Made by a program: the position numbers and the translations under genes. The notes under the pieces are model-generated. The model was not told where the DNA came from. It saw only the letters and a list, made by a program, of their open reading frames with translations, and did no database searches. From assembly GCF_054482525.1 (NCBI RefSeq), contig NZ_CM137006.1: DNA of 64,000 nt; one strand, written 5' to 3'. Position 1 is the first letter of the stretch. Each line of letters opens with the position of its first letter. Of the stretch, positions 41,850-60,173 are shown in pieces.

Positions 41850-41940
41850 CATTTTTTGCAAAAAGGGGTAGATGCAATCGGTTACGCTCTGTATAATGCC
41901 GCGGCAATATTTATTAACCACTCTGGTCGAGATATTGCCC
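41850..41940 (+). promoter_or_regulatory. guaBA promoter region
   Basis: tataat -10 hexamer at 41892-41897, AT-rich upstream; the -35 is weak. Confidence 0.4.
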
Positions 41941-43407
41941 ATGCTACGTATCGCTAAAGAAGCTCTGACGTTTGACGACGTTCTCCTCGTTCCTGCTCAT
42001 TCTACCGTTCTGCCGAATACTGCTGACCTCAGCACCCAGCTGACGAAAACTATTCGTCTGAATATCCCTATGCTTTCCGCAGCAATGGATACCGTAACGG
42101 AAGCGCGCCTGGCTATTGCTCTGGCTCAGGAAGGCGGTATCGGCTTTATCCACAAAAACATGTCCATTGAACGCCAGGCAGAAGAAGTTCGCCGTGTGAA
42201 AAAACACGAATCTGGCGTGGTAACTGATCCGCAGACTGTTCTGCCAACCACGACGCTGCGCGAAGTGAAAGAACTGACCGAGCGTAACGGTTTTGCGGGC
42301 TATCCGGTCGTTACCGAAGAAAACGAACTGGTGGGTATTATCACCGGTCGTGACGTACGTTTTGTTACCGACCTGAGCCAGCCGGTTAGCGTTTACATGA
42401 CGCCGAAAGAACGTCTGGTCACCGTGCGTGAAGGTGAAGCCCGTGAAGTTGTGCTGGCAAAAATGCACGAAAAACGCGTTGAAAAAGCGCTGGTGGTTGA
42501 TGACGAATTCCACCTGATCGGCATGATCACCGTCAAAGACTTCCAGAAAGCGGAACGTAAACCGAACGCCTGTAAAGACGAGCAAGGCCGTCTGCGTGTT
42601 GGTGCAGCGGTTGGCGCGGGTGCGGGTAACGAAGAGCGTGTTGACGCGCTGGTTGCCGCAGGCGTTGACGTTCTGCTGATCGACTCCTCTCACGGTCACT
42701 CAGAAGGCGTTCTGCAACGTATCCGTGAAACCCGTGCTAAATATCCTGATCTGCAAATCATCGGCGGCAACGTGGCAACAGCTGCAGGTGCACGCGCTCT
42801 GGCAGAAGCTGGTTGCAGCGCGGTTAAAGTCGGTATCGGCCCAGGCTCTATCTGTACGACTCGTATCGTGACTGGCGTCGGTGTTCCACAGATCACCGCC
42901 GTTGCTGATGCAGTAGAAGCCCTGGAAGGCACCGGTATTCCGGTTATCGCTGACGGCGGTATCCGTTTCTCAGGCGATATCGCCAAAGCTATCGCCGCAG
43001 GCGCAAGCGCGGTGATGGTGGGTTCCATGCTGGCGGGTACTGAAGAATCTCCGGGTGAAATCGAACTCTACCAGGGCCGTTCTTACAAATCTTACCGTGG
43101 GATGGGCTCTCTGGGTGCGATGTCCAAAGGTTCTTCTGACCGTTACTTCCAGAGTGACAACGCTGCCGACAAACTGGTGCCGGAAGGTATCGAAGGTCGC
43201 GTGGCCTATAAAGGTCGCCTGAAAGAGATCATTCACCAGCAGATGGGCGGCCTGCGCTCCTGTATGGGCCTGACCGGCTGTGGTACTATCGACGAACTGC
43301 GTACTAAAGCGGAGTTTGTACGTATCAGCGGTGCGGGCATTCAGGAAAGCCACGTTCACGACGTGACCATTACTAAAGAGTCCCCGAACTACCGTCTGGG
43401 CTCCTGA
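41941..43407 (+). CDS. guaB: IMP dehydrogenase
   Basis: ORF 41872..43407; start at [14 protein letters not shown] (488 aa); CBS pair and catalytic [11 protein letters not shown] loop. Confidence 0.95.
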
Positions 43408-43475: not shown

Positions 43476-45053
43476 ATGACGGAAAACATTCATAAGCATC
43501 GCATCCTCATTCTGGACTTCGGTTCTCAGTACACTCAACTGGTTGCGCGCCGCGTGCGTGAACTGGGTGTTTACTGCGAACTGTGGGCGTGGGATGTGAC
43601 AGAAGCACAAATTCGTGACTTCAACCCAAGCGGCATTATTCTTTCCGGCGGCCCGGAAAGCACCACCGAAGAAAACAGCCCGCGCGCGCCGCAGTATGTC
43701 TTTGAAGCAGGCGTACCGGTATTCGGCGTTTGCTATGGCATGCAGACCATGGCAATGCAGTTGGGCGGTCACGTTGAAGCCTCTAACGAACGTGAATTTG
43801 GCTACGCGCAGGTTGAAGTCGTAAACGACAGCGCACTGGTTCGCGGTATCGAAGATGCGCTGACCGCAGACGGTAAACCGCTGCTCGATGTCTGGATGAG
43901 CCACGGCGATAAAGTTACCGCTATCCCGTCCGACTTCGTCACCGTAGCCAGCACCGAAAGCTGCCCGTTTGCCATTATGGCTAACGAAGAAAAACGCTTC
44001 TATGGCGTACAGTTCCACCCGGAAGTGACTCACACCCGCCAGGGTATGCGCATGCTGGAGCGTTTTGTGCGTGATATCTGCCAGTGTGAAGCCCTGTGGA
44101 CGCCAGCGAAAATTATCGACGATGCTGTAGCTCGCATCCGCGAGCAGGTAGGCGACGATAAAGTCATCCTCGGCCTCTCTGGTGGTGTGGATTCCTCCGT
44201 AACCGCAATGCTGCTGCACCGCGCTATCGGTAAAAACCTGACTTGCGTATTCGTCGACAACGGCCTGCTGCGTCTCAACGAAGCAGAGCAGGTTCTGGAT
44301 ATGTTTGGCGATCACTTTGGTCTGAACATTGTTCACGTTCCGGCAGAAGCTCGCTTCCTGTCAGCGTTGGCCGGCGAAAACGATCCGGAAGCAAAACGTA
44401 AAATCATCGGGCGCGTTTTCGTTGAAGTATTCGATGAAGAAGCACTGAAACTGGAAGACGTGAAGTGGCTGGCGCAGGGCACTATCTACCCTGACGTTAT
44501 TGAATCTGCCGCATCTGCAACCGGTAAAGCACACGTCATCAAATCTCACCACAACGTGGGCGGCCTGCCGAAAGAGATGAAGATGGGGCTGGTTGAACCG
44601 CTGAAAGAGCTGTTCAAAGACGAAGTGCGTAAGATTGGTCTGGAGCTGGGCCTGCCGTACGACATGCTGTACCGTCACCCGTTCCCGGGACCAGGCCTCG
44701 GCGTTCGTGTACTGGGCGAAGTGAAGAAAGAGTACTGCGACCTGCTGCGCCGTGCTGACGCCATCTTCATTGAAGAACTGCGTAAAGCGGACCTGTACGA
44801 CAAAGTCAGCCAGGCATTCACCGTCTTCCTGCCGGTACGTTCCGTTGGCGTAATGGGCGATGGTCGTAAGTATGACTGGGTTGTCTCTCTGCGTGCTGTC
44901 GAAACCATCGACTTTATGACCGCACACTGGGCGCACCTGCCGTATGACTTCCTCGGTCGCGTTTCCAACCGCATTATCAATGAAGTGAACGGTATTTCCC
45001 GCGTGGTGTATGACATCAGCGGCAAGCCACCAGCGACTATTGAGTGGGAATGA
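43476..45053 (+). CDS. guaA: GMP synthase (glutamine-hydrolysing)
   Basis: 525 aa; GATase active site CYGMQ; ATP-PPase SGGVDSS; C-terminus …KPPATIEWE appears intact. Confidence 0.95.
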
Positions 45054-45099
45054 TTAACAGCTAACTCATAGCAACTCATTTCTATTCAGATATTAACTC

Positions 45100-45245: not shown

Positions 45246-46496
45246 GTGCTTACCGATACAAAATTAAAAAACCTCAAGCCGCAGGACAAACTGTACAAGG
45301 TCTCCGATCGTGACGGGCTGTATGTAGCTGTGCTTACGTCAGGCACGGTCTCGTTTCGCTATGACTACCGTATCAACGGTCGTCGCGAAACACTGGTAAT
45401 CGGGCAGTATGGGCGTGACGGTATCAGCCTGGCAGAAGCGCGAGAAGAACTGATTGCTGCAAAGAAGCTGCTTAAAGCAGGCCAGTCGCCGGCTGCGGCT
45501 AAACGTGACGGTATCAAAAAGATTCGTGGTGCCGAGACGTTTGCGGTACATACCGACAGTTATATGAAACACGTCATCCTGGCTGACAGTACCCGCGCAA
45601 TGAAGCAGGCGGTGATTGACCGTGACATACTTCCGGTTCTTGGTAACAAAATGATGGCTGAAATTACCACATCGATGGTTCGTGATTTGTGTGACCGGAT
45701 TGTCGAACGCGGTGGTCGGGCAACAGCAGTACAGGCCAGGGAGATCATCAGCAGCGTATACCGTCACGCCAATGACCGTGGTCATGGTTTGTTTAATCCT
45801 GCGGCTGACATTAAACCTTCGTCTATCGCCATATTTAAACCACGAGAGCGAACACTGACACCAGAAGAAATTGGCCTGTTCTTCCGCACGCTGGATGCCA
45901 TTGGTGCTATGGGCACTATGAAAATGGCTTTAAAGCTGGTGCTTATCACTATGGTTCGTAAAGGCGAATTCACCAACGCAACGTGGGATGAAATAGATTT
46001 TAAAAAATGGACATGGACAATTCCTTCAGACCGCATGAAGGGAAGCCGGGCGCACGTTATTTACCTGCCTAAACAGGCTCAGGATATATTGGTCGGGTTG
46101 CAGATGTGCGCTGGTGGAAGTGAATATCTGGTTCCTGGTCGTTACAATTTCCGGAAGCCATTATCTAATGCCGCGCTGAACTCTCTGATCGACAGAACGG
46201 TGAAAATAATAAATGAAGATGGTGAGCATATTCAGGGCTTCACCGTACACGATATGCGCCGTACAGCCAGTACGTTGTTGCATGAGGCTGGTTATCCTTC
46301 AGACTGGATTGAAAAGGCTCTGGCACATGAGCAGAAAGGTGTGCGCGCCGTATATAACAAAGCGGAATACGCCAGACAGCGCGCCTACATGTTGCAGCAG
46401 TGGGCCGATATGATTGATTCCTGGATTAACGGGGAGCATACGGATCTGATTCCGTTCTCCCCGTCGAAGTTTGAGAAGTGGATGGCGGGGGAATAA
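45246..46496 (+). CDS. int: Phage tyrosine integrase (P4/CP4-57-like, N-terminal arm-binding domain)
   Basis: 416 aa; C-terminal catalytic region with HDMRRTASTLL and conserved R/H/Y context; first gene after guaA. Confidence 0.9.
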   Translation: MLTDTKLKNLKPQDKLYKVSDRDGLYVAVLTSGTVSFRYDYRINGRRETLVIGQYGRDGISLAEAREELIAAKKLLKAGQSPAAAKRDGIKKIRGAETFAVHTDSYMKHVILADSTRAMKQAVIDRDILPVLGNKMMAEITTSMVRDLCDRIVERGGRATAVQAREIISSVYRHANDRGHGLFNPAADIKPSSIAIFKPRERTLTPEEIGLFFRTLDAIGAMGTMKMALKLVLITMVRKGEFTNATWDEIDFKKWTWTIPSDRMKGSRAHVIYLPKQAQDILVGLQMCAGGSEYLVPGRYNFRKPLSNAALNSLIDRTVKIINEDGEHIQGFTVHDMRRTASTLLHEAGYPSDWIEKALAHEQKGVRAVYNKAEYARQRAYMLQQWADMIDSWINGEHTDLIPFSPSKFEKWMAGE

Positions 46497-46499
46497 CGT

Positions 46500-46694
46500 T
46501 TAATAGTTCTGCTGATTTTCTTCCATCTCTGCTTCTGCTGCCAGTGATTCAATTTTGTTTTCGAATATTGCTGACAGTGTTGCAAATTCAGCATCAGTGA
46601 CAGCGGGAATTGGAACAAACCTGATCCCGCTGTGTGCAAGCATGTTTGCAGTTTCAAGGCATTTTCTTAAATCTGCTGGTGATGCCCTGTTCAT
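46500..46694 (-). CDS. Hypothetical small phage protein (start uncertain)
   Basis: ORF 46500..46814 overlaps methyltransferase 3' end in another frame; internal Met at 46694 would abut the methyltransferase stop. Confidence 0.3.
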   Translation of the reverse strand: MNRASPADLRKCLETANMLAHSGIRFVPIPAVTDAEFATLSAIFENKIESLAAEAEMEENQQNY

Positions 46695-47353
46695 GCAGCA
46701 CGCTCCCGCCCCTGGTTGTCTGTTGGTGACATCGGAGAATTGCTGAATGCATTTGTTAATCCGCCAATATCCAACGCGTATCCTGGGTGTAGTTGCACTG
46801 CCGGGCCTTCGCACTGGTTACCCCAAACATCGAAGCCATGAGACGTCTGGCGGGCGAACAGTTCAATGCGAGAAACATCGCCTAACAATTGCACAAGTTT
46901 TTCACGAACGACATCTGGTTTTCTTGAATGCTCAAGCCGCGGTGCGGTAAATGACTGAACGATACCTGCATTAATGCGCGGAGGTAGTTTTCCCTTTACT
47001 GCAAACAGGCAATCTTCACTATTGGCGCGAGTCATGTGTCCCATACCCATAACCAGTTTATCTGGTTGTCGACTACCACATTTTATCCACGTGAAGCCCT
47101 TCATGGTCATCAGACGGAATCCCCAGGCTTCAACAACTTTTAGTGCTTCGAGTGGTTGTGTTGGCACCCACCACATGGCCAACAGACAGTTTTCATCGGC
47201 CAAATCCCACACAGGAAGGCGGCAGATATCCAGCACACTCATAACAGGATATTTAAAACCGGCACCGCGATTACCATCTGCGGCTTTGTCCCGGTATACC
47301 CAGGGTGGATCTGCATAGATTAGTGTGTATTTCTTAGTCATAAACCACCCCAC
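46691..47353 (-). CDS. MT-A70 family DNA N6-adenine methyltransferase (orphan, phage-encoded)
   Basis: DPPW catalytic motif (LIYADPPWVY); no adjacent restriction endonuclease. Confidence 0.8.
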   Translation of the reverse strand: MGWFMTKKYTLIYADPPWVYRDKAADGNRGAGFKYPVMSVLDICRLPVWDLADENCLLAMWWVPTQPLEALKVVEAWGFRLMTMKGFTWIKCGSRQPDKLVMGMGHMTRANSEDCLFAVKGKLPPRINAGIVQSFTAPRLEHSRKPDVVREKLVQLLGDVSRIELFARQTSHGFDVWGNQCEGPAVQLHPGYALDIGGLTNAFSNSPMSPTDNQGRERAA

Positions 47354-47633
47354 AACATCCTATGCCGCTATAGTCGCCACGGCGAAGGCCGTTACCTTTT
47401 GTGATACATTGGTCCCTGCGAACCGCGATCCTTGCACGTTCAACATCACCAGAAGCAACATCCATACACTGAAGCCAAAGGTGAGCGGCAATGCGGAATT
47501 GCCCTTTTTTCTCTCTTTCAATCGCGCGTTTTTCGATCTCTATCGCCGCAGGAGTAACGGCGACAATCTTTGAAGGGCTGCGCATTGAAACCTTGTTCAT
47601 GTGATATTTTTCAAGTCGGCTTAACTTTCTCAC
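47334..47633 (-). CDS. Hypothetical phage protein
   Basis: 99-aa ORF between excisionase and methyltransferase; no recognisable motif. Confidence 0.4.
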   Translation of the reverse strand: MRKLSRLEKYHMNKVSMRSPSKIVAVTPAAIEIEKRAIEREKKGQFRIAAHLWLQCMDVASGDVERARIAVRRDQCITKGNGLRRGDYSGIGCCGVVYD

Positions 47634-47742
47634 TTAATCCAACCCTCTCTGAAAATTAATGCCAGCAGATAAAGCCATGCTGAAACAGAGGCCAGGAATA
47701 AGTACCATCCTGACCATTTGCTCCAGTGCCTTAGCAGCACAC

Positions 47743-47991
47743 TCATGCAGCGTTGCTCACAGGACGATATACACGTTGCTGAACAGGAGGCTTTTTACCC
47801 TGGAACTCTGCCGGGCTTGCTGCCTGACGTTCATCAAGCCAACGCTCAACTTCATCACGGTTCCATGCGCAGCGTTTATCGGTGATATACCAGCGTTTAG
47901 GAAATTCCCCTGCGCGCTCCATACGGTCGATAGTGCTCCATGACAGTGGCACCACCGCCAGGAGTTCCTTCTTACCTAATGCACCTTTCAT
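47743..47991 (-). CDS. AlpA-family excisionase/transcriptional regulator (MerR-like HTH)
   Basis: 82 aa; AlpA-like pattern (…LSWSTIDRMERAGEFPK…WNRDEVERWL). Confidence 0.75.
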   Translation of the reverse strand: MKGALGKKELLAVVPLSWSTIDRMERAGEFPKRWYITDKRCAWNRDEVERWLDERQAASPAEFQGKKPPVQQRVYRPVSNAA

Positions 47992-48040
47992 AAATACCTC
48001 TCTTGGTTGCAGTGCGGCGCGCGTGGCGCCGCGGTGGTGG

Positions 48041-48922
48041 TTACATAGATGTTTCGTTTAATTCTTCCCGACGAACGCTGTAAACGTCGGTGGCTTTTGC
48101 CAGCAGTTCGTCATCATCTGAAAGTTTTTGTGCAATGTATTTGTAAGCCTTATCCAGTTCGGAGACAGTGCTGTAATTCATCGCTGCGCTGGTAAAGGCC
48201 ATCAGCATTTCTTCTGGCTCACGGCTATCCGCTTTACGCGTTTGCTCATCAGGCTTTTTCACTGATTTAGCGTTGATCAGACTGTTCATTCCCGCAGCCG
48301 TAGTCATTTGCGGAGTAATGTCTCGCTCAACGCGCGGTGCCGTTTCCTGTAATTCGTCAGGGGTGTAAACACCGAGAAGTACATCAGGAGCGTGCAGGCG
48401 AGCCCATCGTTTCGTGCAAAGATAGGCAAGTTGCTGGCGCGGATCCTGTTCCCACAATGGAGAGTTACGCACTCCTGCTTGCGCCATACTGATGGTAAGC
48501 TCACGTGGTTCTGCTTCTCCTTTAAGAACTGCTGACACAGTTACCGTCAGATTCGGTGATTTATCTGTTTTGCCGTTAACATTCGACCAGTCACCGCTCC
48601 AGCGATAATTCAGGCGTGTCGCCAGCAGGCTGGAAGAGGATACGACCGCGTTTACCAACTGTGCTTCGTAGCCTAACGTTCCGTTTACCACATGCGTTTT
48701 CTGCGCCACGGCGAAAGGGTTCATTCCCCACTGTGCCGCCTGCATGGTCACCGCCAGGCAATCGGCAGGTTTGCCTTCAAGATGTTTCGGTACAGTCGCT
48801 TTGCTTTGTGACATCAACTCCGCGAAACGCACCAGTTGATTCATGCCCTCGGGGCTGAAGATTGCCGCAGCAGTGCCTACAGTTGCGCCTGGTTGTGATG
48901 TGATTGCGATATCATTGCTCAT
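48041..48922 (-). CDS. Bet/Red-beta family single-strand annealing recombinase
   Basis: 293 aa; alignable by eye to lambda Bet (…ERDITP… and W..P…L…ARL…Y..DE segments). Confidence 0.75.
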   Translation of the reverse strand: MSNDIAITSQPGATVGTAAAIFSPEGMNQLVRFAELMSQSKATVPKHLEGKPADCLAVTMQAAQWGMNPFAVAQKTHVVNGTLGYEAQLVNAVVSSSSLLATRLNYRWSGDWSNVNGKTDKSPNLTVTVSAVLKGEAEPRELTISMAQAGVRNSPLWEQDPRQQLAYLCTKRWARLHAPDVLLGVYTPDELQETAPRVERDITPQMTTAAGMNSLINAKSVKKPDEQTRKADSREPEEMLMAFTSAAMNYSTVSELDKAYKYIAQKLSDDDELLAKATDVYSVRREELNETSM

Positions 48923-49740
48923 ACGTACATATCCTGTTTACGTGCCCAGTCAGGGCGTTTAATAATTTCCACTCCGCCCCATTCATCGTTGATGCGGCAT
49001 TCGTGATAGGTATTCAGATCCCGGCGGAACAGAGCGTGCCCGGCATCGACATCCGGCGCATCCAGCTCGAACACGCGTACCGGATACCGACCACAATCAA
49101 TGCTTTCGCTCACGGCAAGAAAGAAAAAACCATGTGGCTGACCAGTAACCCTCATTGCGCCTTCGCGGTACATTGCGTCCTGCACGTGGTAGCGGAACTC
49201 CTCGATGTGGCGTGCAAAACGGTCCATATCTGTAACCTTTTTCACGTCGACGATCACGTTGTGCTCTTTCAGCCATTTGTCTGGACGAATGCGGCACAAC
49301 TCACCAGTCTCTTCATCGTTCCAGTACATTGATGCTTCGCAGTAACCAGGTGCTTCCAGCATCCAGCGTGCCGCCGGGTGAGCCATTGCGCTATCACGCA
49401 TCAGCTCCAGTTTCCGCCACTGCTCGGCATCAAGTACCGTAATCCCCATATCCGCCACATCACGAAGAAATGCCTCTTCGTCAGCTTTACCTTGTTTCGT
49501 CCGACGATCGAATTTCGGCGAAACAATGAAGCGTTTGTCGAACTCTCCAGGCTCCAGAAGCAGACAGTGCAATGCGGTTCCCATATCCAGTGCAGACTTT
49601 TTCTCTTCGTCTTCTGGTGCTGCCTGAACCCATTTAAGAAGCGCCGGATTCTTGGCAACCATGTCCAGTTGCGACTTACTCACGCCGTCCCCGGCGTGGT
49701 AGTCTTCGTTGCTGATGTCGAAATAAATTCCCGGCTTCAT
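48919..49740 (-). CDS. RecE-like / exodeoxyribonuclease VIII-family PD-(D/E)XK exonuclease
   Basis: 273 aa; N-terminus YHAG…SKSQLD typical of prophage exodeoxyribonuclease VIII-like proteins; translationally coupled to Bet gene. Confidence 0.7.
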   Translation of the reverse strand: MKPGIYFDISNEDYHAGDGVSKSQLDMVAKNPALLKWVQAAPEDEEKKSALDMGTALHCLLLEPGEFDKRFIVSPKFDRRTKQGKADEEAFLRDVADMGITVLDAEQWRKLELMRDSAMAHPAARWMLEAPGYCEASMYWNDEETGELCRIRPDKWLKEHNVIVDVKKVTDMDRFARHIEEFRYHVQDAMYREGAMRVTGQPHGFFFLAVSESIDCGRYPVRVFELDAPDVDAGHALFRRDLNTYHECRINDEWGGVEIIKRPDWARKQDMYV

Positions 49741-50051
49741 GCCGCGTCCCTCTGCCCATCAAGCTGATCAGCCAGATCCCAGCGGGCGATAATTGCCATT
49801 GCCTCGCGCCGGTAGGAATCCATCAGTTCTTCGAACTCAGGGCTGTCTTTAGCTGCTTCCAGCACTTCCTGGCGAACTCCTTTGCCTGTTACAACGTCGA
49901 AAGTTGAGGCCAGTTGATGAAGCCGGATGCTCTCAATCAGTTCAACTTGTCGGTCATATAGCTGTTCTGACAGGCGGTAGTCCTTGTCGAATGCCAGCAT
50001 GATTTTTTGAAGATTTTTCTGCTGATTAACGTTCATTATCAGCCCTCCCAT
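49737..50051 (-). CDS. Hypothetical early-left operon protein (Gam/Kil position)
   Basis: 104-aa ORF (likely start MNVNQQ at 50036) directly upstream of exo. Confidence 0.45.
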   Translation of the reverse strand: MGGLIMNVNQQKNLQKIMLAFDKDYRLSEQLYDRQVELIESIRLHQLASTFDVVTGKGVRQEVLEAAKDSPEFEELMDSYRREAMAIIARWDLADQLDGQRDAA

Positions 50052-50190
50052 ATCTCGTTATCGTTGGCCACATCGCGAGCTTCTTTGCTGACGAAAGCCC
50101 ACTTAATACCTTCCTGTAAGGTGCGGAACTTCCAGCTCATGAATCCGCATGCAGTAACGCAGTACCAACCGTTGATGATTTTCCACTGCA
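50041..50190 (-). CDS. Small protein, possibly CIII-like
   Basis: 49-aa ORF MQWKIINGWYCVTACGF… with GAGG RBS; weak resemblance to lambda CIII N-terminus (MQYAIAGWPVAGC); not in ORF track (under 60 aa). Confidence 0.35.
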
Positions 50191-50297
50191 TAACTTGTTA
50201 CCTCGGTTTGTTACCGTTGAGGTAATGATTATGCGTATTTGGTTTGGTGTCAATAGATATGAGTTAAAAAAATTACCCACAAGGTAATCTTGCTGGC

Positions 50298-50325
50298 AAT
50301 AAAAAAGCCGCCATGAGGCGGCTTA
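50298..50325 (-). terminator. Rho-independent terminator after repressor gene
   Basis: On minus strand: aagccgcctcatggcggctt hairpin followed by ttttttatt. Confidence 0.65.
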
Positions 50326-50344
50326 CTTGCTGAAAACTATAGTT

Positions 50345-50929
50345 TTATTGTTTGCTTTTTTCGTTCTGGTTGATGACAAATTCAATGTAACTTTCGATCT
50401 TTGCTTTCTCGGTTTCGGGTAACAATGCGTAGCGCGAGCGGTCATAGTTGATAGTCGCAGGGTCGTGCGGGTGAATCAGTAATTCATAGCCGTGACGCCC
50501 GAATGCGGATGCAACATTCTCCAGGGTGGAAATGGAAACGCTGACCTCATTGTTTAACAGGCGGCTGATTGTCACCTGGGCGACGCCGGATGCGCGGTGA
50601 AGTTTTCCCTGTGTTGAAAGGTCGCGGCTTTCGCTCATCCAGCGTTCCAGGTTGTGAGCCGCCAGCTGACCAATGTCGCTTGGGCCGACAGGCTGAAAAC
50701 CTTCCTGAGAAAGCGAGCGATCGATATCAAGCCAGTTACGGGGTTTATTGGCGGCAGCTTCAATTTTTCGCGCAACCTGGTCGCCGATAACCTTCTTACC
50801 AAGAGCCCAGCGGTTTACCAGATTTGCCTGAGTTCCAAGTTTTTCTGCCATCCGCGTCTGAACACCATTGAATTCACGGTCGATCAAGTCGTTGAGATTT
50901 TGCCTGCGGACGTCCTGGATACTTTTCAT
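50345..50929 (-). CDS. CI-like prophage repressor with two HTH segments, no S24 peptidase domain
   Basis: 194 aa; HTH-like segments (TRMAEKLGTQANLVNRW and GVAQVTISRLLNNE); divergent from Cro-like gene; no Ala-Gly/Ser-Lys autocleavage motifs seen. Confidence 0.7.
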   Translation of the reverse strand: MKSIQDVRRQNLNDLIDREFNGVQTRMAEKLGTQANLVNRWALGKKVIGDQVARKIEAAANKPRNWLDIDRSLSQEGFQPVGPSDIGQLAAHNLERWMSESRDLSTQGKLHRASGVAQVTISRLLNNEVSVSISTLENVASAFGRHGYELLIHPHDPATINYDRSRYALLPETEKAKIESYIEFVINQNEKSKQ

Positions 50930-51083
50930 TTTCTGGAAAATCGCCTCATATATGAATCAGTAGATGATTCAATTTAAAGCAATATTACCCAACAGGTAAA
51001 TGCACCCCATAGGTAACTATCCTTGATTTTTGTTACCTTATGGGTGAATATTTATTATCTGAAATAAATATCAGGCAATAGCT
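50930..51083. promoter_or_regulatory. Immunity-region divergent promoter/operator (PRM/PR equivalent)
   Basis: Contains TTACCCAACAGGTAA (50985-50999) and near-copy TTACCTTATGGGTGA (51033-51047). Confidence 0.7.
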
Positions 51084-51314
51084 ATGAGCGATAACGGACA
51101 TTTCGATTTCAAAAAGCACTGGCTTGCACTTACTCCGGATGAGCGTGAAGCCTTCGCACAGGAAGCCGGAACGACGAGTCACTATATACAGACTCACTTA
51201 ACAGGTAAGCGCAAAATGCCAGGTAAGGTATTGATGAATGGGCTTTTTAAAGCCTGTAAAACAAGACAATGGCTGCGCTCAAAAGCAGAACTGGCATACT
51301 TCTTCTACTCATGA
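51084..51314 (+). CDS. Cro/CII-like HTH regulator
   Basis: 76-aa ORF divergent from repressor, followed by terminator. Confidence 0.55.
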   Translation: MSDNGHFDFKKHWLALTPDEREAFAQEAGTTSHYIQTHLTGKRKMPGKVLMNGLFKACKTRQWLRSKAELAYFFYS

Positions 51315-51336
51315 TATCCAGCCACAACCCTCTGTA

Positions 51337-51360
51337 GACCGCCACCCGGCGGTCTTTTCA
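51337..51360 (+). terminator. Rho-independent terminator (tR1-like) after cro-like gene
   Basis: gaccgccacccggcggtc hairpin followed by ttttca. Confidence 0.6.
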
Positions 51361-51462
51361 TATCTATTCGTACCTCAAAGGTAATAAAAAACCAAATCTG
51401 GTTGATCAAATTTTCCAATTGTGCAAAATAGCCAATATCAATAACAAAAAGGGGCGGAAAAA

Positions 51463-51675
51463 TTGAAGATAGTAACCAGAATGGAGGCCGCAAAAGCCGG
51501 GTTAAATCGCTATTTCACAGGAAAGCGGTGCCGTCACGGCCATCTCTCTGAAAGGTATGTTCTGAACGGAACATGTGTTGAATGTGCAATGAATAGCGCC
51601 AACCGCCATCGTAATGAATTTGCTTGTGCACTAAAGAGTGCAAGAGGGGAAACCTATGGCAAGCAGCTGGATTAA
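51463..51675 (+). CDS. Small Cys/His-rich (zinc-binding?) phage protein
   Basis: 70 aa; C-x-H-G-H…C-x2-C pattern; 3' end overlaps O-like gene. Confidence 0.45.
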   Translation: MKIVTRMEAAKAGLNRYFTGKRCRHGHLSERYVLNGTCVECAMNSANRHRNEFACALKSARGETYGKQLD

Positions 51676-52486
51676 GGTTGAAGTTATCACTCCTGATAAA
51701 CCTGAAATTTTTCAGATAGCAGAAATTCTGGGTATTGATCCAGATGCTGTTCTTGGAAAGCTGGTTCGTATATGGGCATGGGCTGACCAGCAAACAATAG
51801 ACGGTAACGCTGGCAGCGTTACAAAAGGAGTACTTGATAGACTCGCTTTTATTACAGGATTTGCTGACGCCCTCATTAGCGTCGGATGGCTTGCTTATCA
51901 TGACGGCAAACTAATTCTTCCAAACTTTGAGCGACACAATGGAGAATCATCGAAAAAACGTGCACTTACGAATAGAAGAGTGGCAGAGCATCGAAAACGA
52001 GTAACGCAAAAAGTAACGCCAACAGCGTTACAAAAGGAGTTACCAGAGGAAGAGGAAGAGGAAGATATATATAAAACCCCACACATAGCGCACGTGCGCG
52101 AGGGTGCTCCGACCAGTGAAGCGAACAGTACGCCGTTGCAGGTGGCAGAACCTGAATTTCTGGATGGCCTGAGTGAACCCATCGGGAAATTTCCGATGAC
52201 AGATGGCTGGCTACCGTCGCCAGATTTTCGGCGGCGTGCTGCGCTGTGGGGAACGGCCCTGCCGGAACCGGAATTTACACCTGCTGAACTTGCTGCATTC
52301 CGGGATTACTGGATGGCTGAGGGCAAAGTGTTCACGCAGGTTCAGTGGGAACAAAAATTCGCCAGGCACGTAAATCATATCAGGGGAAAATCAAAAAATG
52401 CCGGGAAAAGCGATGAGCTTGACTGGAATAACACTGACTGGATAGAAGGGGTGTGGGATGAAATCAACTCCAGAACTTCTCAATGA
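51656..52486 (+). CDS. Replication initiator (O-like) with DnaT-like C-terminal domain
   Basis: ORF 51638..52486 (start at MASSWIKVEV assumed); internal iterons; acidic EEEEEED linker; followed by P-like gene. Confidence 0.7.
   Translation: MASSWIKVEVITPDKPEIFQIAEILGIDPDAVLGKLVRIWAWADQQTIDGNAGSVTKGVLDRLAFITGFADALISVGWLAYHDGKLILPNFERHNGESSKKRALTNRRVAEHRKRVTQKVTPTALQKELPEEEEEEDIYKTPHIAHVREGAPTSEANSTPLQVAEPEFLDGLSEPIGKFPMTDGWLPSPDFRRRAALWGTALPEPEFTPAELAAFRDYWMAEGKVFTQVQWEQKFARHVNHIRGKSKNAGKSDELDWNNTDWIEGVWDEINSRTSQ
51800..52080. promoter_or_regulatory. Putative phage replication origin (iterons + AT-rich segment inside O-like gene)
   Basis: Repeated GTAACGC/GCGTTAC motifs; 17-bp exact repeat agcgttacaaaaggagt at ~51813 and ~52024; then gaagaggaagaggaagatatatataaaa. 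Confidence 0.55.
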
Positions 52487-53234
52487 GTACGATCGCTTAC
52501 GTGAGCATGGTGTTGCTGTGCATGAAGAGCGGCGTGACAGCAATGGCAAAAAGGAGCAGGTTGCTAGAATTTTCAATGAACTATTTGTCCAGTTACAGGC
52601 TGCATTTCCTGCAAGCGTTTCGACCATAAGGGAGCAGAACAAACTTAATGAATTCCGTAAGCAATGGATGCTTGCGTTTCTGGAGAATGGGATCACTACA
52701 ATGGAACAGGTTAACGCTGGTATGCGCCACGCCCGCGCCAGTGAATCTCCGTTCTGGCCGTCGCCAGGGCAATTCATCAAGTGGTGCAAAGACAGCAAGA
52801 TGGTTCTTGGCGTCACCATTGACGATGTGATGGCGGAGTTTCACCGGTACAGCAAGGAAAAAAGTTTATATCCTGGTGGTCCCGAAAGATTCCCGTGGCG
52901 ACATCCGGTTATGTACTGGGTCGTATGTGATACCCGCCGTGCAATGTATCAGCGCCAGCTTAGCGAGATTGAGGTTGAGAAACACGCGCGCAGGCTGCTC
53001 GATGATTGGGCGAAAAAGGTGGCTTCCGGACAGCAGATACCCGATCCGGTGATCAGCATACAGGCAAAGCCAGAACCCATGAGTACGCCTCCTGACACTG
53101 GGAGAGACGTTTACCATCCACCAGGGCGAAGTTTCGGGTGCATGCCTAACGCCGCCACCCTGGGGGGAATAACACCGGCGCAGTGGCTGATAGAGGAATA
53201 CAGGCGGGGAAAGGCGGCAGGATTTATCAAGTAA
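52458..53234 (+). CDS. Replication protein P-like helicase loader
   Basis: 258 aa; strong similarity to lambda P as I recall it (…FPASV…REQNKLNEFRKQWMLAFLENGITTMEQVNAGMR…). Confidence 0.85.
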   Translation: MKSTPELLNEYDRLREHGVAVHEERRDSNGKKEQVARIFNELFVQLQAAFPASVSTIREQNKLNEFRKQWMLAFLENGITTMEQVNAGMRHARASESPFWPSPGQFIKWCKDSKMVLGVTIDDVMAEFHRYSKEKSLYPGGPERFPWRHPVMYWVVCDTRRAMYQRQLSEIEVEKHARRLLDDWAKKVASGQQIPDPVISIQAKPEPMSTPPDTGRDVYHPPGRSFGCMPNAATLGGITPAQWLIEEYRRGKAAGFIK

Positions 53235-53351
53235 TACCAGCGCGATAGCGCATTTTTTTACGCCTACATGATTACCTGTTGGGTAATAAAATGTTCTAAT
53301 CTCTATTGATTTCATGTCTTATGTGGTTTTTAATTACCTAAGGGGTAAATC

Positions 53352-53696
53352 ATGAGAAAACAGATACAGGCTCTTGGTCGACTCAAAACAGGCCAAATGA
53401 ACAAAACAGAATCTGCGTATTGCCAGCACCTTGAGCTGCGTAAACGTGCAGGAGAAATCGTCTGGTATCGATTTGAGGGTATCAAGCTGCGGTTAGCTGA
53501 CAACACGTTCTATACGCCCGATTTTGCTGTGATGCTCGCCACCGGCGAGATGGAACTGCACGAAGTGAAAGGTTTCTGGACCGACGACGCCAGGGTGAAA
53601 ACCAAAGTCGCCGCAGATCAGTATCCGTTCCGAATCATCGGGGTAACGGTTAAACCAAAGAAAGCAGGTGGTGGCTGGAACATCGAAGAGTTCTGA
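53352..53696 (+). CDS. Small PD-(D/E)XK-motif protein (DUF1064-like)
   Basis: 114 aa; YTPDF … ELHEVKG resembles PD…(D/E)xK. Confidence 0.5.
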   Translation: MRKQIQALGRLKTGQMNKTESAYCQHLELRKRAGEIVWYRFEGIKLRLADNTFYTPDFAVMLATGEMELHEVKGFWTDDARVKTKVAADQYPFRIIGVTVKPKKAGGGWNIEEF

Positions 53697-53757
53697 AGCG
53701 ACGATCTTTTTAGTTATCAATGTAATCAATAAGTTATGTGGATAAGCGAGGGTAAAG

Positions 53758-54276
53758 ATGGAAAGTAATATCAAAGGGTTAGTTGCCGCCGGGCATGAGA
53801 TGGCTTCGGAACTGAAAGCAGAATGTGGTGCCGTTGATATGCGCAGTGTGGCAAAGCTGATCAGCGATTTGGCAACGCAACTGGAAGTGCAACTGGTGCG
53901 TGCTAATGCGCTGGCGGCGGAGAATGAGCTGGCTCGTAAGGCAGTTCAGGCATTCTGCGATGTTGTTGGCGACAACACCGAGGTTATCGCTGAGGTGGTT
54001 GGGCGAGATGGCGTTCTGGTTATTTTGGAGGCCATGAAGGCAACAGGAAATATGCCAGCCACCGATGCTTTCCTGGCTGAAGTGCGGGCGCAGGGCGTGG
54101 ATGCTGCTATAGAAGCTGCAAAAAATCTGGTGGCCCAAGAATATGAGTATAAGGATTTCAAAGCGGCGCAGAGTGATTGCTGTATGCACCCTGGTTCAGA
54201 TCTGGTAGGGAAGGTTGAAATGACTGAGTGGTTAGTTGACTTTGCTGCCCAGCTTCGCAAAGGAGGCAACCAGTGA
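53758..54276 (+). CDS. ead/Ea22-like phage protein
   Basis: 172-aa acidic coiled-coil-like ORF in nin-like region. Confidence 0.45.
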   Translation: MESNIKGLVAAGHEMASELKAECGAVDMRSVAKLISDLATQLEVQLVRANALAAENELARKAVQAFCDVVGDNTEVIAEVVGRDGVLVILEAMKATGNMPATDAFLAEVRAQGVDAAIEAAKNLVAQEYEYKDFKAAQSDCCMHPGSDLVGKVEMTEWLVDFAAQLRKGGNQ

Positions 54277-54761
54277 GCGAAATTAATTACCAGGCACTGC
54301 GTGAGGCGGCGGAACGTGCAATTCCAGCAATGGAACGCCTGTTAATGTTGCCAGCTGATGATGATTTGTTAAGTGAACAGGAACTTAAAGATTACGGTGT
54401 GGATATTGATGCGCTCAACGCCTTCAAATTTCTGGCCGGACCAGAAACCGTGCTGGCACTACTGGATGAACGGGAAAGGAACCAGCAATACATCAAATCC
54501 CGCGACCAGGAGAACGAGGATATTGCGCTAACGGTAGGGAAGTTGCGCGTTGAGCTTGAGGCAGAAAAACAGCGGGCAAAGGATCTGTTTATGGAAAATG
54601 CTCGGCTTAAGTCAGGTATAGCCGGTCTGATACACCTCGGTATTCGATATGCAGATGTTGATGTCATGAAAATTGCTGGAGATGCCCAGCTTTCTACCCC
54701 ATGCACTGACAGCATCATAAACAGCATTGCAACAGGCATTCGCATCAACGGAGGTGAGTAG
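54273..54761 (+). CDS. ead/Ea22-like phage protein
   Basis: 162 aa; MSEINYQALREAAE… N-terminus typical of Ea22-like proteins; overlaps previous gene stop. Confidence 0.5.
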   Translation: MSEINYQALREAAERAIPAMERLLMLPADDDLLSEQELKDYGVDIDALNAFKFLAGPETVLALLDERERNQQYIKSRDQENEDIALTVGKLRVELEAEKQRAKDLFMENARLKSGIAGLIHLGIRYADVDVMKIAGDAQLSTPCTDSIINSIATGIRINGGE

Positions 54762-54841
54762 TGCGTGTGGCATGTATTGGCTTGTTACCGTACCCGACTC
54801 GTTTTTGGGCTTCTGCGCTAATTGCAAAGCCACAGGTCCTG

Positions 54842-54937
54842 ATGGCTGACAACATCACCCCAGCACCAAAGCGCCGCCATACCGGTATTGCAGCGGCACG
54901 ACGAGCAGCAAAGAGACGCAGGAGAGCAAAGCGATGA
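54842..54937 (+). CDS. Arg-rich micro-ORF (A)
   Basis: MADNITPAPKRRHTGIAAARRAAKRRRRAKR; its TGA overlaps the next ATG (ATGA); start could be GTG at 54761. Confidence 0.35.
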   Translation: MADNITPAPKRRHTGIAAARRAAKRRRRAKR

Positions 54938-55110
54938 AAAACCGTAAGGCAAAACGACTTTTTTTACAGCGACCTGTGCGTGTGGTGGAGCTGGTTATTA
55001 GCAACCATAAGATAGCGGTACTCCATCCATTTGGTCAGGTGGCTTTTGCCGCAAAGCGTAAGCCTACTGCGTCACAGAACAGGCGGAAGAAAGGGTACGC
55101 AGTAAGATGA
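54934..55110 (+). CDS. Basic micro-protein (B), paralogous N-terminus MKNRKAK
   Basis: 58 aa; ATGA-coupled to next ORF. Confidence 0.4.
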   Translation: MKNRKAKRLFLQRPVRVVELVISNHKIAVLHPFGQVAFAAKRKPTASQNRRKKGYAVR

Positions 55111-55295
55111 AAAACCGTAAAGCAAAGATTCTGTTAGTTCGTAGAAACGCTCCTGGCGTCTGGCAGTGGGTGAGACTCAGCAACCGACGGATGGGGTTGA
55201 TGAAATATTACGGGATGATGGATTGTGGTTTTTGCAAAAAGCCCAGCGCGGCGCAAAACCGCTGGAAAAACCATTTGCGCACTAAAGGAGAGTGA
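55107..55295 (+). CDS. Basic micro-protein (C), paralogous N-terminus MKNRKAK, Cys pair
   Basis: 62-aa ORF in track; same MKNRKAK start as ORF B. Confidence 0.5.
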   Translation: MKNRKAKILLVRRNAPGVWQWVRLSNRRMGLMKYYGMMDCGFCKKPSAAQNRWKNHLRTKGE

Positions 55296-55296
55296 T

Positions 55297-55812
55297 ATGG
55301 CGTTAACACACCGCGAACTCTGTCAGATTGCGTACAAGTTCCTTAAGCGCAACGGGTTCAAGGTTTGTTTTCATGACCGCTTTATAGCTGTAACCAGTAC
55401 CGGAGAACAGCCAGATGCTATGGGGTTCAGAAATTCAGCATCATGCCTGATAGAGGCGAAGTGTTCTCGTGCTGATTTGTTGGCAGATAGAAAAAAGCGT
55501 TTTCGTAAAAATCCGTCTCTTGGAATGGGCGACTGGCGATTCTTTATTAGTGAGCCGGGAATTATTTCAATTGAGGATTTACCACCTGGCTGGGGATTAC
55601 TTCACGTTGTTAACGGAAGAGTACGGAAAGTACATGGGTGGCCCAAGGGTAATTGCTGTTGGGGTAACCCTGAAGATAAACCTTTTATTGGGAATAAGCA
55701 GGTTGAATGCGATTACATGTTATCTGCATTAAGGCGCATGGAGTTGAGAGGGCACCTTAATGAAATATATGACGGTGTAATTGTTAATAAGAAAGAAGGA
55801 AACGCGGCATGA
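55297..55812 (+). CDS. Hypothetical protein with PD-(D/E)XK-like motif
   Basis: ORF 55225..55812, start at MALTHREL assumed (RBS ggag); motif …QPDAMGF…CLIEAKCS…. Confidence 0.5.
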   Translation: MALTHRELCQIAYKFLKRNGFKVCFHDRFIAVTSTGEQPDAMGFRNSASCLIEAKCSRADLLADRKKRFRKNPSLGMGDWRFFISEPGIISIEDLPPGWGLLHVVNGRVRKVHGWPKGNCCWGNPEDKPFIGNKQVECDYMLSALRRMELRGHLNEIYDGVIVNKKEGNAA

Positions 55813-56204
55813 TCACTATTACCAATAAGAAACAGTATCCCAGCGAGCAATATCTTAATGAGCTGATCACCAACATAGAGTTTGCTGCAAGGGCACCAGT
55901 TGAAGTCGTGAGAGCAATGGCAGCAGAGCTACAGAAGCGGCGCGAAGCTGATAGCGCAGAACCAGTTGCTTATATTTTCAAACATCCGGCCGGGAAATTA
56001 TTCTGGGCTTTAACGGATGAAAGTAATAAAGAGCAAGCGGACGTTATTCCTGTTTATGCCGCCCCTCCAGTGCCAGTAGTACCTGAAGAAAAACCAATGC
56101 CTAACCCTCTTAAAATGTACGCGGTCGATGCTGTTGCCGCTATTGCAGAGGTGAGAGGCTGGAATGCCTGCCGCGCCGCCATGCTTCAGGGTAAAGGAGA
56201 GTGA
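55809..56204 (+). CDS. Hypothetical phage protein
   Basis: 131 aa, overlapping start/stop with neighbours. Confidence 0.45.
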   Translation: MITITNKKQYPSEQYLNELITNIEFAARAPVEVVRAMAAELQKRREADSAEPVAYIFKHPAGKLFWALTDESNKEQADVIPVYAAPPVPVVPEEKPMPNPLKMYAVDAVAAIAEVRGWNACRAAMLQGKGE

Positions 56205-56205
56205 T

Positions 56206-56415
56206 ATGGCTATTGCCGCAAGTTACACCATGCATCTCTATTGTGACTGCCGCCAGTGTACGGAAGGTGTATATCCAGTGCCAGACTTCGGTGAGTATAT
56301 CGGTACGTCATGGTCTGGTTGTGCAAAAGAGGCCCGTAAAGACGGGTGGCGAATAAGCGCCGACAAAACACGTGCTTTTGCGCCCGGGCATAAAGTTTTG
56401 AGGATTAACACATGA
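56206..56415 (+). CDS. Hypothetical Cys-rich small phage protein
   Basis: 69 aa from ATG at 56206 (ORF track 56164..56415); CDC…C…C pattern. Confidence 0.4.
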   Translation: MAIAASYTMHLYCDCRQCTEGVYPVPDFGEYIGTSWSGCAKEARKDGWRISADKTRAFAPGHKVLRINT

Positions 56416-57215
56416 CCACTATTACCAAAGAACGTATTGAATTGTTCATTAAAAATCCGCTTGAAAACGGGCTTACTCGTGGCGAACAAATGGAACTGGC
56501 ACGAATTGCACTGGCATCACTGGAACGCGAACAGATTCGCCACGAGCATGCCAAATGGTCTGACTCCACATTTGGCTGCGTTGGCCCCATTGGTCCACTG
56601 AAACACCTCTCAAAAGAGGCACTGGAAGCCGCAGCCGAACCAGACGATCTTAGCGAGTGGGCTGATATGCAGTTTCTGTTGTGGGATGCACAGCGCCGTG
56701 CTGGCATCAGCGATGCTGAAATTAACGTTGCTATGGAAGATAAATTGAAGATCAACATGGAGCGCCAGTGGCCTGAGCCAAAAGATGGTGAGCCTCGCTT
56801 GCACATTAAAGAACCCGGCAACTCTCCGGTAATTCCGGATGGTTTATCCACGGTATGCGCTGAGGCTTATCAGGTTGTAGGAGTTATGGCAGATGCGCTT
56901 GGTGTATTCGGTGATGCAGCAGTACAGAACGTTCTGGATAACCTGTCACAGCAAAAACTTGTTCACAGAGATGTGCTGCCGTTCTCGCTTCCGGCAACTC
57001 CGGATGGTTGGATAAGCTGTAGTGATCTAATGCCGGAAGACACCAAAATGTTACTGGCATTTAGTCAAGGTGAAATCGTGGCAGCATATTGGAACTGGGT
57101 TGTAAATCCAATTGATTACAAAAAATATAGAGCTTTCACGTATTTATCAGGAAATATCTTGGATGACGTAACCCACTGGATGCCGCTACCAGAACCGCCG
57201 CAGGAGGTGAAGTGA
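56412..57215 (+). CDS. DUF550/DUF551-like nin-region protein
   Basis: 267 aa; C-terminal …WISCSDLMPED…HWMPLPEPP typical of DUF551 as I recall it. Confidence 0.5.
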   Translation: MTTITKERIELFIKNPLENGLTRGEQMELARIALASLEREQIRHEHAKWSDSTFGCVGPIGPLKHLSKEALEAAAEPDDLSEWADMQFLLWDAQRRAGISDAEINVAMEDKLKINMERQWPEPKDGEPRLHIKEPGNSPVIPDGLSTVCAEAYQVVGVMADALGVFGDAAVQNVLDNLSQQKLVHRDVLPFSLPATPDGWISCSDLMPEDTKMLLAFSQGEIVAAYWNWVVNPIDYKKYRAFTYLSGNILDDVTHWMPLPEPPQEVK

Positions 57216-57565
57216 TGGACTATTCACAGTTAAGTGATTTTGAAATTAACAGAATGGTAGGAGACATAATTTTTAAAGGCCTTTGGGCGTGTAAACCGGA
57301 AACATCAGGGAATAACACCAACAAATGGTATTACGGAAATACTGATACAACTTTTGAGCCATTAAACCCTTTACCTGACTACTGCAATAATCCATCGGAT
57401 GCATGGCCTATTATTGTTGATAATAAAATCAGTCTAACCTGCCACCAATCTCGCGGTGAGTGGTCAGCTGTTTTTAATGTCGAGAACATTTGCTTTCATG
57501 CGAATAATCCACTCCGAGCCGCCATGATTGTATTTCTCATGATGCAGGAAAATCAGAATGGCTAA
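57212..57565 (+). CDS. NinX-like protein
   Basis: 117 aa; N-terminus MDYSQLSDFEIN resembles NinX/DUF2591 family. Confidence 0.5.
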   Translation: MMDYSQLSDFEINRMVGDIIFKGLWACKPETSGNNTNKWYYGNTDTTFEPLNPLPDYCNNPSDAWPIIVDNKISLTCHQSRGEWSAVFNVENICFHANNPLRAAMIVFLMMQENQNG

Positions 57566-57896
57566 ATCAGCAGCAGAGCGCAAAGCCGCTCAGAGAGCCA
57601 GACAAGCTGCATCTGGTGTGCGTAAGCTGGAGATTGTGCTTGATGCTCAGGAAATTGAAATGCTTGAGCGTAACTGTGCCGCACGTCGCCCCGGGCGTGC
57701 GCCTTACGAATTTGGTGAGTATATAGCGTTACTGATCCGCCAGGATGATGCACGCGTGCGCGGGCGTATAAAATCGATCAGTAGAAAACGTTGCGGTAAG
57801 TGCGGCGAGAGAGTTCCCGTTAATTCATGCCCGTGTAATGGTGACTCGCAATGCTGGGTGACTAAAGGCTGGTATGAAACGAAATTAATAGTGTGA
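57558..57896 (+). CDS. Small basic protein with C-terminal Cys cluster (possible regulator)
   Basis: 112 aa; CGKCGERVPVNSCPCNGDSQC zinc-ribbon-like; last gene before terminator and terminase. Confidence 0.45.
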   Translation: MAKSAAERKAAQRARQAASGVRKLEIVLDAQEIEMLERNCAARRPGRAPYEFGEYIALLIRQDDARVRGRIKSISRKRCGKCGERVPVNSCPCNGDSQCWVTKGWYETKLIV

Positions 57897-57945
57897 CATG
57901 TCACGAGTAGATTATGCATGATGAATTTGACGGGTTTTGAATACT

Positions 57946-57971
57946 GCCGCCAACTATGGCGGCTTTATTTT
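57946..57971 (+). terminator. Rho-independent terminator upstream of terminase small subunit
   Basis: gccgccaactatggcggc hairpin followed by tttatttt. Confidence 0.6.
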
Positions 57972-58014
57972 GCATGGTACTATTACCACAACGGTAACTA
58001 TTACCACGGTGGTT

Positions 58015-60083: not shown

Positions 60084-60129
60084 TCCGCTGGTGGGGATAA
60101 TGTCGTTGATATCCTCTGGTGAGGATAAA

Positions 60130-60156
60130 ACAAAGCCAGCTCATAGGCTGGCTGTT
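60130..60156 (-). terminator. Terminator of reverse-strand moron transcript
   Basis: On minus strand: agccagcctatgagctggct hairpin followed by ttgtttt. Confidence 0.5.
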
Positions 60157-60173
60157 TGTGACATGTCACAGAG

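Follow-up and report, generated by a model that had tools for sequence, protein, structure and literature searches.

An orphan MT-A70 methyltransferase with a lineage-specific C-terminal tail at the distal end of a Uetakevirus-like prophage operon

The 64,000-nucleotide stretch of DNA that we analysed (hereafter the window) carries a temperate prophage of Uetakevirus-like type (epsilon15/phiV10/SPN1S-like), which has its insertion site at the 3' terminus of E. coli guaA. Positions 46500-47633 make up the distal part of its early-left operon. The region is an ordinary, annotated and widespread prophage module made of known gene families, in which only one thing stands out: the MT-A70 methyltransferase encoded there has a tail that is specific to its lineage. 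The explanation towards which we lean, with moderate confidence, is that of an orphan methyltransferase with Dam-like activity, expressed from a translationally coupled operon and carrying a tail that was fused to its C-terminus. The locus carries little weight beyond its annotation, given that the module is common, its genes are named and a close homologue of the enzyme has been studied in Stx phages. Its value is as a natural comparison case: a lineage without PNB-2, the partner of the Stx-phage enzyme, and with a different tail bears on the dispute over DNA (GATC) versus 16S rRNA as the substrate. The features to which we refer are the following.

45039..45055, plus strand: attL core ATTGAGTGGGAATGATT, 17 nt, at the guaA 3' end; left end of the prophage; exact match, with a chance expectation of 0
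45246..46496, plus strand: P4-type tyrosine integrase, 416 aa (Pfam Arm-DNA-bind_3, Phage_int_M and Phage_integrase; PGAP)
46500..46694, minus strand: DUF1382/lambda Orf63-family gene, 64 aa (Pfam PF07131, 103.2 bits; phrog_292; PDB 8DSB; PGAP coordinates)
46691..47341, minus strand: MT-A70 family beta-class N6-adenine methyltransferase (predicted), 216 aa (Pfam PF05063; DPPW at residues 11-14)
46694..46780, minus strand: lineage-specific C-terminal tail of the methyltransferase, residues 188-216, YALDIGGLTNAFSNSPMSPTDNQGRERAA; absent or different in most homologues
46695..46814, minus strand: upstream part of a 104-aa alternative-frame ORF, noncoding in that frame; the peptide is unconserved and unrelated genes follow the same sequence
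46703..46707, minus strand: Shine-Dalgarno-like GGGAG within the last methyltransferase codons, serving the downstream gene
47334..47633, minus strand: PerC-family protein (putative regulator), 99 aa from GTG 47633 (Pfam PerC PF06069; phrog_868); overlaps the methyltransferase start by 8 nt
47630..47746, minus strand: gene for a 38-aa hydrophobic membrane peptide, ATGA-coupled to alpA and GTGA-coupled to the PerC-like gene
47743..47991, minus strand: AlpA-family excisionase/regulator, 82 aa (Pfam Phage_AlpA, 24.2 bits against a cut-off of 21; phrog_66)

In the window, guaB (41872-43407) and guaA (43476-45053) are followed by the prophage. The attL core listed above is identical to the one described for vB_EcoP_ZX5, an E. 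coli Uetakevirus that uses the 3' end of guaA for integration and has its integrase 190 bp away (PMC9782041); the distance from core to integrase gene in the window is likewise 190 bp, and both core and spacing are therefore those of vB_EcoP_ZX5. The 1.4 kb surrounding the methyltransferase region is 99.9% identical to E. coli strain 1517k, whose prophage of about 35 kb carries late genes of epsilon15 type (capsid staple gp10, Bbp16 cement and a T7 gp14-like core protein). The gene order is that of Salmonella phage SPN1S (Uetakevirus), with an excisionase, a 38-aa membrane protein, a 99-aa transcriptional activator, a methyltransferase, a small gene and a convergent integrase. The SPN1S methyltransferase is 77% identical to the window enzyme; however, SPN1S has extra DUF1317 and DGQHR-domain genes before it, and the enzyme itself is short-tailed (197 aa) and followed by a different small gene. 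Because the attL core is that of ZX5, the gene order is that of SPN1S and the late genes in 1517k are epsilon15-like, we assign the prophage to the Uetakevirus-like type and to the guaA site. Other prophage ORFs, at 51-60.6 kb of the window, include DnaT-like, Ead/Ea22, dATP/dGTP pyrophosphohydrolase+DUF551 and NinX proteins. The module is present in 544 of 5426 complete E. coli genomes (~10%), nearly all at 95-99% identity, and at least 80% of it is retained in 514 of these 544. As for sequence composition, GATC occurs 58 times against 73 expected in the prophage part of the window and 206 times against 174 expected in the host part, a mild difference.

Read from 5' to 3' on the minus strand, the genes are ordered AlpA excisionase, 38-aa membrane peptide, PerC-family protein, MT-A70 methyltransferase and DUF1382 protein. 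The successive junctions from alpA to the DUF1382 gene consist of ATGA, GTGA, an 8-nt overlap and ATGA, and the exo-like and RecT genes further upstream are likewise coupled via ATGA overlaps. These five genes, from alpA/xis through the Orf63-like gene, would form one translationally coupled unit. The integrase gene is convergent with the operon and its stop lies 3 nt from the DUF1382 stop. The methyltransferase does sit between an integrase (45246-46496, plus strand) and an AlpA-type excisionase (47743-47991, minus strand), as an earlier reading of this DNA from its sequence only (the sequence-only reading) had it. A scan for promoters and terminators across 46300-48200 returned no promoter-like site and two antisense terminator-like sites, with no excess over shuffled sequences. 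The methyltransferase would be made upon transcription of the early-left operon, at infection or at induction. In the loci of relatives the alpA, 38-aa and PerC-like genes are constant, and the interval from the PerC-like gene to the integrase is made of shuffled cassettes. At the 99.9%-identical 1517k locus, PGAP gives the PerC-like, methyltransferase and DUF1382 genes identical family names.

Both small ORFs that flank the methyltransferase gene, which the sequence-only reading had taken for uncharacterised or unknown, belong to described families. The 99-aa product upstream scores 30.1 bits against Pfam PF06069 (cut-off 22.6 bits), a match that covers residues 35-80 only, and it matches phrog_868, annotated as 'transcriptional activator', end to end (positions 1-99 of 99, E 5.7e-62). 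By these profile matches, the gene encodes a putative PerC-like regulator, which may activate transcription as PerC/Pch does for ler/LEE. The downstream gene is a member of the DUF1382/lambda Orf63 family, for which a structure has been solved. Its Pfam PF07131 score compares with a cut-off of 27 bits, profile positions 1-60 begin exactly at Met 46694, phrog_292 is matched over positions 1-63 of 63, and residues 2-62 match PDB 8DSB (lambda Orf63) with an E-value of 8.5e-13. Lambda Orf63, which is encoded in the exo-xis region and made early, forms a dimer and has pro-lytic effects (PMC10869804, PMC5575149). The 64-aa gene is a clear homologue, and both are accessory genes of the early-left region; the window gene differs in being last in its operon and coupled to the methyltransferase, whose stop its ATG at 46694 overlaps by 4 nt (ATGA). 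An Orf63-type gene is also found 3' of the methyltransferase in Stx2a phages, and in other relatives it is upstream of the methyltransferase or absent. The gene occupying the next slot in the window is thus Orf63-like and, by likeness to the lambda protein, may be pro-lytic.

The minus-strand ORF 46691-47353 matches Pfam PF05063 over the entire profile (positions 1-172 of 172, E 6e-22, 78.8 bits against a cut-off of 23.9) and the PADLOC MTase_II model with an E-value of 3e-76. Together with DPPW at residues 11-14, this bears out the initial identification of a DPPW-motif MT-A70 adenine methyltransferase. We place the start at ATG 47341 rather than GTG 47353, because the N-termini of homologues and the PGAP annotation agree on it. 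All invariant columns of a 91-sequence alignment are kept, including W14, K141, P142, E160, F162 and G174; motif IV (DPPW) is found near the N-terminus and the C-terminal HSxKP, ELFAR and WGNQ motifs are intact. An AF2 model of the protein (pLDDT 82, pTM 0.81) retrieved METTL3 (E 3e-13) and MTA1 (E 1.3e-12) in a Foldseek search, and MTA1, the Tetrahymena DNA 6mA enzyme, is also the nearest solved relative by sequence. Motifs and model together indicate that the protein is an intact beta-class N6-adenine enzyme, predicted to be SAM-dependent. The suggestion that the gene might turn out to be a pseudogene in relatives found little substance, with a premature stop in merely one of 80 IMG/VR loci. 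METTL3-METTL14 and Tetrahymena MTA1-MTA9 share the catalytic fold and motifs with the window enzyme, but the identity is only ~20-25% and these enzymes require a paralogous MT-A70 partner, whereas there is no second MT-A70 gene here.

What this enzyme methylates can be approached through its studied homologues. The closest of them is gp5 of Stx2a phage phiPA8, M.EcoPA8orf6770P, with 83% identity and 90% positives over residues 1-187. Gong, Chakraborty and Koudelka (PMC10810198) saw hardly any DNA methylation in vitro by M.EcoPA8orf6770P alone. An overlapping upstream gene encodes PNB-2, with which the enzyme formed a 1:1 complex that favoured 16S rRNA and 30S subunits, and the enzyme increased spontaneous prophage induction (PMC10810198). 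M.EcoGV, which is highly similar to M.EcoPA8orf6770P, methylates GATC upon overproduction in vivo (PMC10810198, PMC6602927). Additionally, Serratia phage BZS1 p32 and the Tn1549 enzyme M.EfaBMDam were GATC-specific in dam-negative E. coli (PMC7556043). These two (p32 being of the HK639_35 type) resemble the window enzyme in family, size, orphan status and the location of the gene near a temperate-phage integrase (PMC7556043); on the other hand, the homologue of BZS1 p32 in phage HK639 is only 45% identical to the window enzyme and has a 23-residue insertion after residue 97. The window protein is thus homologous to enzymes with demonstrated GATC methylation, from which its own specificity is predicted, and the GATC assignments in the family rest on overexpression.

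Since GATC activity recurs in the family down to ~40% identity and the partner that directs the Stx-phage enzyme to rRNA is missing here, the activity that we consider likeliest is a Dam-like methylation of DNA, at the adenine N6 of GATC; we hold this reading by analogy to be somewhat probable and rank it above an RNA-directed role. Such methylation would duplicate that of Dam in a Dam-positive host rather than obviously counter a restriction system. The anti-restriction or epigenetic function proposed at the outset would be only one option.

It is less probable, by a clear step, that the window enzyme is an RNA methyltransferase that acts on 16S rRNA and tunes spontaneous prophage induction like the Stx-phage enzyme. 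PNB-2 would in that case be replaced by the PerC-like or the Orf63-like protein, or by the enzyme's own fused tail. The likeness to M.EcoPA8orf6770P/M.EcoGV (E. coli O104:H4) is certainly close: all are small orphan prophage MT-A70 proteins with DPPW, the 83% identity over residues 1-187 is to an enzyme whose holoenzyme favoured 16S rRNA and 30S subunits (PMC10810198), and the genes lie in an early-left accessory region near int/xis, with a DUF1382/Orf63-type gene next in line. METTL3, an RNA writer active only as a heterodimer, is among the nearest solved folds. The methyltransferase gene is translationally coupled to genes for small proteins on both sides, and proteins of the Orf63 family can hold a helical ligand in a cleft (PMC10869804), the Orf63-type gene following the methyltransferase in Stx2a phages as well. 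However, while a related catalytic subunit is present in the window, neither an upstream PNB-2 gene nor the STEC-type C-terminal 27 residues accompany it. A tblastn search with PNB-2 gave best E-values of 0.48 in the window and 0.24 in a related whole prophage and found no homologue, and homologues of PNB-1 and DUF1317 were not found in either; it is the PerC-like gene that overlaps the methyltransferase start instead. The C-terminal 27 residues of M.EcoPA8orf6770P, which its authors suggest as a possible site of PNB-2 binding (PMC10810198), are replaced here by an unrelated tail, the alignment stopping at residue 187 and the last 29 residues of the window protein showing no relation to those of the Stx-phage enzyme. 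Published modelling of the PNB-2 complex failed, and the published work does not give the identity of the modified rRNA base (PMC10810198). The host phages differ too, being lambdoid Stx phages in one case and an epsilon15-type podovirus at guaA in the other. Finally, the neighbours of the methyltransferase differ freely from one relative to the next (DUF1317, DGQHR protein, PDDEXK_5, phosphatase and others), and thus no fixed partner is apparent.

Whether the substrate is DNA or RNA, the methyltransferase is to be regarded as an orphan and not as half of a restriction-modification pair. We draw this conclusion from gene content: neither Pfam nor PADLOC picked out a restriction-enzyme gene from the window's prophage ORFs, and no restriction enzyme is annotated in the whole ~35-kb prophage of E. 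coli 1517k, which carries the 99.9%-identical module. The orphan status proposed in the sequence-only reading is thereby upheld. A search of the prophage ORFs at 51-60.6 kb for restriction or defence genes, again with Pfam and PADLOC, found none. It is accordingly very improbable that the enzyme serves as the modifying partner in a restriction-modification or other defence system whose nuclease lies elsewhere in the element, and for the window locus this explanation is largely refuted. PADLOC does assign the methyltransferase to Type II methyltransferase models, and nuclease-like genes overlap the methyltransferase start in two related elements, one for a PDDEXK_5 protein in an Enterobacter prophage and one for a DGQHR-domain protein in phage SPN1S. 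Such neighbours are, however, exceptions among the 83 loci examined: 78 of 80 IMG/VR loci lack them, as does the E. coli module. With no cognate endonuclease gene among the window's prophage ORFs or in the 1517k prophage, the locus does not qualify as a Type II restriction-modification system.

The one unusual part of the enzyme is its C-terminus. The Pfam domain ends 40 residues ahead of the stop, most homologues have 187-200 aa, and their alignment reaches only residues 1-187/192 of the window protein, in agreement with the initial impression that the C-terminus is longer than the family norm. Prophages at guaA in E. coli, Salmonella and Enterobacter provided 12 diverse copies, and in all 12 the distance from the WGNQ motif to the stop is 135 nt, with no indels. 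Variable sites in tail codons 14-44 among these 12 relatives number 12, 8 and 22 at codon positions 1, 2 and 3 of the methyltransferase frame. Because the length is fixed and variation is concentrated at codon position 3, we conclude that the tail is translated in the methyltransferase frame; judged by this pattern, the C-terminal extension is genuine. Alignment with homologues, by which the true stop was to be defined, thus points to a real and lineage-specific extension of constant length in 12 relatives. In the AF2 model the tail has a helix at residues 192-200 with a pLDDT of ~66, and residues 202-205 and 209-216 fall below 50; past the low-confidence helix, the end of the tail is probably disordered.

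A hint of where the tail came from is provided by four relatives (L072, L074, L079 and L086) in which a separate 63-aa ORF lies behind the gene for a short methyltransferase (196-199 aa). In its C-terminal part, LTAVLRNAPLAPSDNQGKIR, this ORF resembles the window tail, LTNAFSNSPMSPTDNQGRER, with Smith-Waterman scores of 48-65 that none of 5000 shuffles reached, and the ORF weakly matches phrog_16888, a family of methyltransferase C-terminal fragments. At the DNA level the similarity between the window tail and the small ORF of L074 is limited to a 9-nt exact match. DNA similarity being minimal, the relationship appears to be old and kept at the peptide level. This suggests, as the most likely origin, that the 3' part of a small gene downstream became fused to the methyltransferase and gave the tail, or that the reverse split took place; the scenario is based on the protein similarity of a motif of ~20 residues. 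A more speculative and rather improbable extension of this idea is that the tail, with its conserved NAPL(S/A)P(T/S)DNQG, is a detachable adaptor, which is fused to the enzyme in the window and forms the end of a separate small protein downstream in the four relatives. If it were so, phage MT-A70 enzymes would change partner or substrate (DNA GATC versus 16S rRNA) through swaps of tail and cassette. The swaps would occur at a fixed ATGA junction, and the different tail of the Stx-phage lineage would be the one that pairs with PNB-2.

That junction is conserved irrespective of what it precedes. The last seven methyltransferase codons carry a ribosome-binding site and the ATGA start for the next gene, and the sequence CGGGAGCGTGCNGCATGA, which comprises GGGAG and this ATGA, is invariant in 12 relatives whichever gene comes next. 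The next gene begins at the junction ATGA in all tail-bearing relatives and in most others, and the same junction precedes at least seven unrelated downstream genes, among them Orf63-like genes, a NinI-like Ser/Thr phosphatase, a 59-aa coiled-coil protein, a 124-aa Cys-rich protein and a 61-aa zinc-ribbon-like protein. Originally posed as alternatives, a longer C-terminus and a small gene of its own from Met 46694 are therefore both true at once, and no choice has to be made.

Of the alternative-frame ORF at 46500-46814, which had been noted as overlapping the methyltransferase, the part that stands is the real gene from Met 46694; the 40 codons upstream are a mechanical extension of it. Conservation of this upstream part, proposed as a check, proved poor, and the alternative-frame peptide is interrupted by stops in two relatives (L066 and L071). 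Since the same upstream sequence is found before unrelated genes, the 40 codons are not part of the DUF1382 gene. A longer 104-aa DUF1382 gene from GTG 46814, or a frameshift artefact that lengthens the methyltransferase, is hence the least probable of the explanations we considered: it is true that 40 codons without a stop precede Met 46694 in the alternative frame, in the window as in several relatives, but the Pfam and PHROG DUF1382 profiles begin at that Met, the variation follows the methyltransferase frame and the tail has a constant length. Programmed frameshifting between the methyltransferase and DUF1382 genes was also considered and is rejected, as a plain ATGA overlap with a Shine-Dalgarno sequence of its own accounts for the junction, which unrelated genes use too.

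The comparison with relatives additionally bears on the annotation of the upstream genes. The PGAP form of the PerC-like gene is 83 aa long and starts from ATG 47585; relatives from Salmonella and Enterobacter conserve the N-terminal 16 residues of the 99-aa form and begin them with ATG, and a Shine-Dalgarno-like GAGAGGG lies upstream of GTG 47633. The 38-aa ORF is without PGAP annotation in strain 1517k; it matches phrog_17484 over positions 1-38 of 38 (E 4.7e-27), is conserved in Salmonella/Enterobacter relatives (L004 and L006) and is annotated in SPN1S as SPN1S_0036. Two PGAP calls in this operon, the start of the PerC-like gene and the missing 38-aa gene, look improvable.

Directly after the methyltransferase stop lies a cassette slot, as comparison of the related loci L007-L086 makes plain. 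Across these loci nearly all of the unrelated genes that occupy the slot open at the same ATGA, which is preceded by a constant ...CGGGAGCGTGCNGC. The occupants found in this set are:

Orf63-like gene
NinI-like Ser/Thr phosphatase gene
coiled-coil protein gene, 59 aa
Cys-rich protein gene, 124 aa
zinc-ribbon-like protein gene, 61 aa

The 9-mer GCNGCATGA is present in the window at 47751 and 46699, and several proteins of the operon end in Ala-Ala because of the GCNGCATGA junction.

The start of the methyltransferase gene is overlapped by a nuclease-like or defence-like gene in two relatives, an Enterobacter prophage (L006) and Salmonella phage SPN1S (L087):

L006, 3498-4025, PDDEXK_5 protein (26.7 bits versus 26.1)
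L087, 2509-3504, DGQHR-domain protein

The Enterobacter methyltransferase is itself a mosaic, in which the N-terminal half is of HK639 type and carries an insertion of 20-23 residues.

Upstream in the operon, between alpA and the PerC-like gene, a further small gene is encoded:

47630-47746, minus strand, hydrophobic membrane peptide of 38 aa

It is coupled to both neighbors through ATGA and GTGA overlaps, the peptide is matched end to end by phrog_17484, and the gene is annotated in SPN1S as SPN1S_0036; it is missing from the PGAP annotation of E. coli strain 1517k, which is 99.9% identical here. The probable start of the PerC-like gene is GTG 47633 (99 aa) and not the ATG 47585 chosen by PGAP (83 aa; region 47585-47633, minus strand). 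The 16 additional N-terminal residues are conserved, relatives carry an ATG at the position matching the GTG, and phrog_868 has a length of 99 positions.

At the other end of the operon, the stops of the integrase (plus strand) and DUF1382 (minus strand) genes converge 3 nt apart at 46496-46500, with no terminator-like structure between them; relatives show a 4-nt overlap of the two stops. A transcript of either gene that read through this point would be antisense to the opposite gene. The attachment site lies at the guaA stop:

45039-45055, attL core ATTGAGTGGGAATGATT

The attP/attB core published for phage vB_EcoP_ZX5 has exactly this sequence.

Elsewhere, comparison with strain 1517k shows a mosaic stretch of the prophage at 51400-57700, where some segments are without a match and several ORFs (55225-56415) gave no family matches. 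This part also encodes:

56412-57215, dATP/dGTP pyrophosphohydrolase+DUF551 fusion
57212-57565, NinX

A tRNA-Arg gene (anticodon TCT; 60795-60871, minus strand) lies inside the prophage with terminase and portal gene regions on either side. With 58 occurrences against 73 expected, GATC shows a mild deficit in the prophage part (45246-64000); the host part (1-45000) has a mild excess, with 206 against 174 expected.
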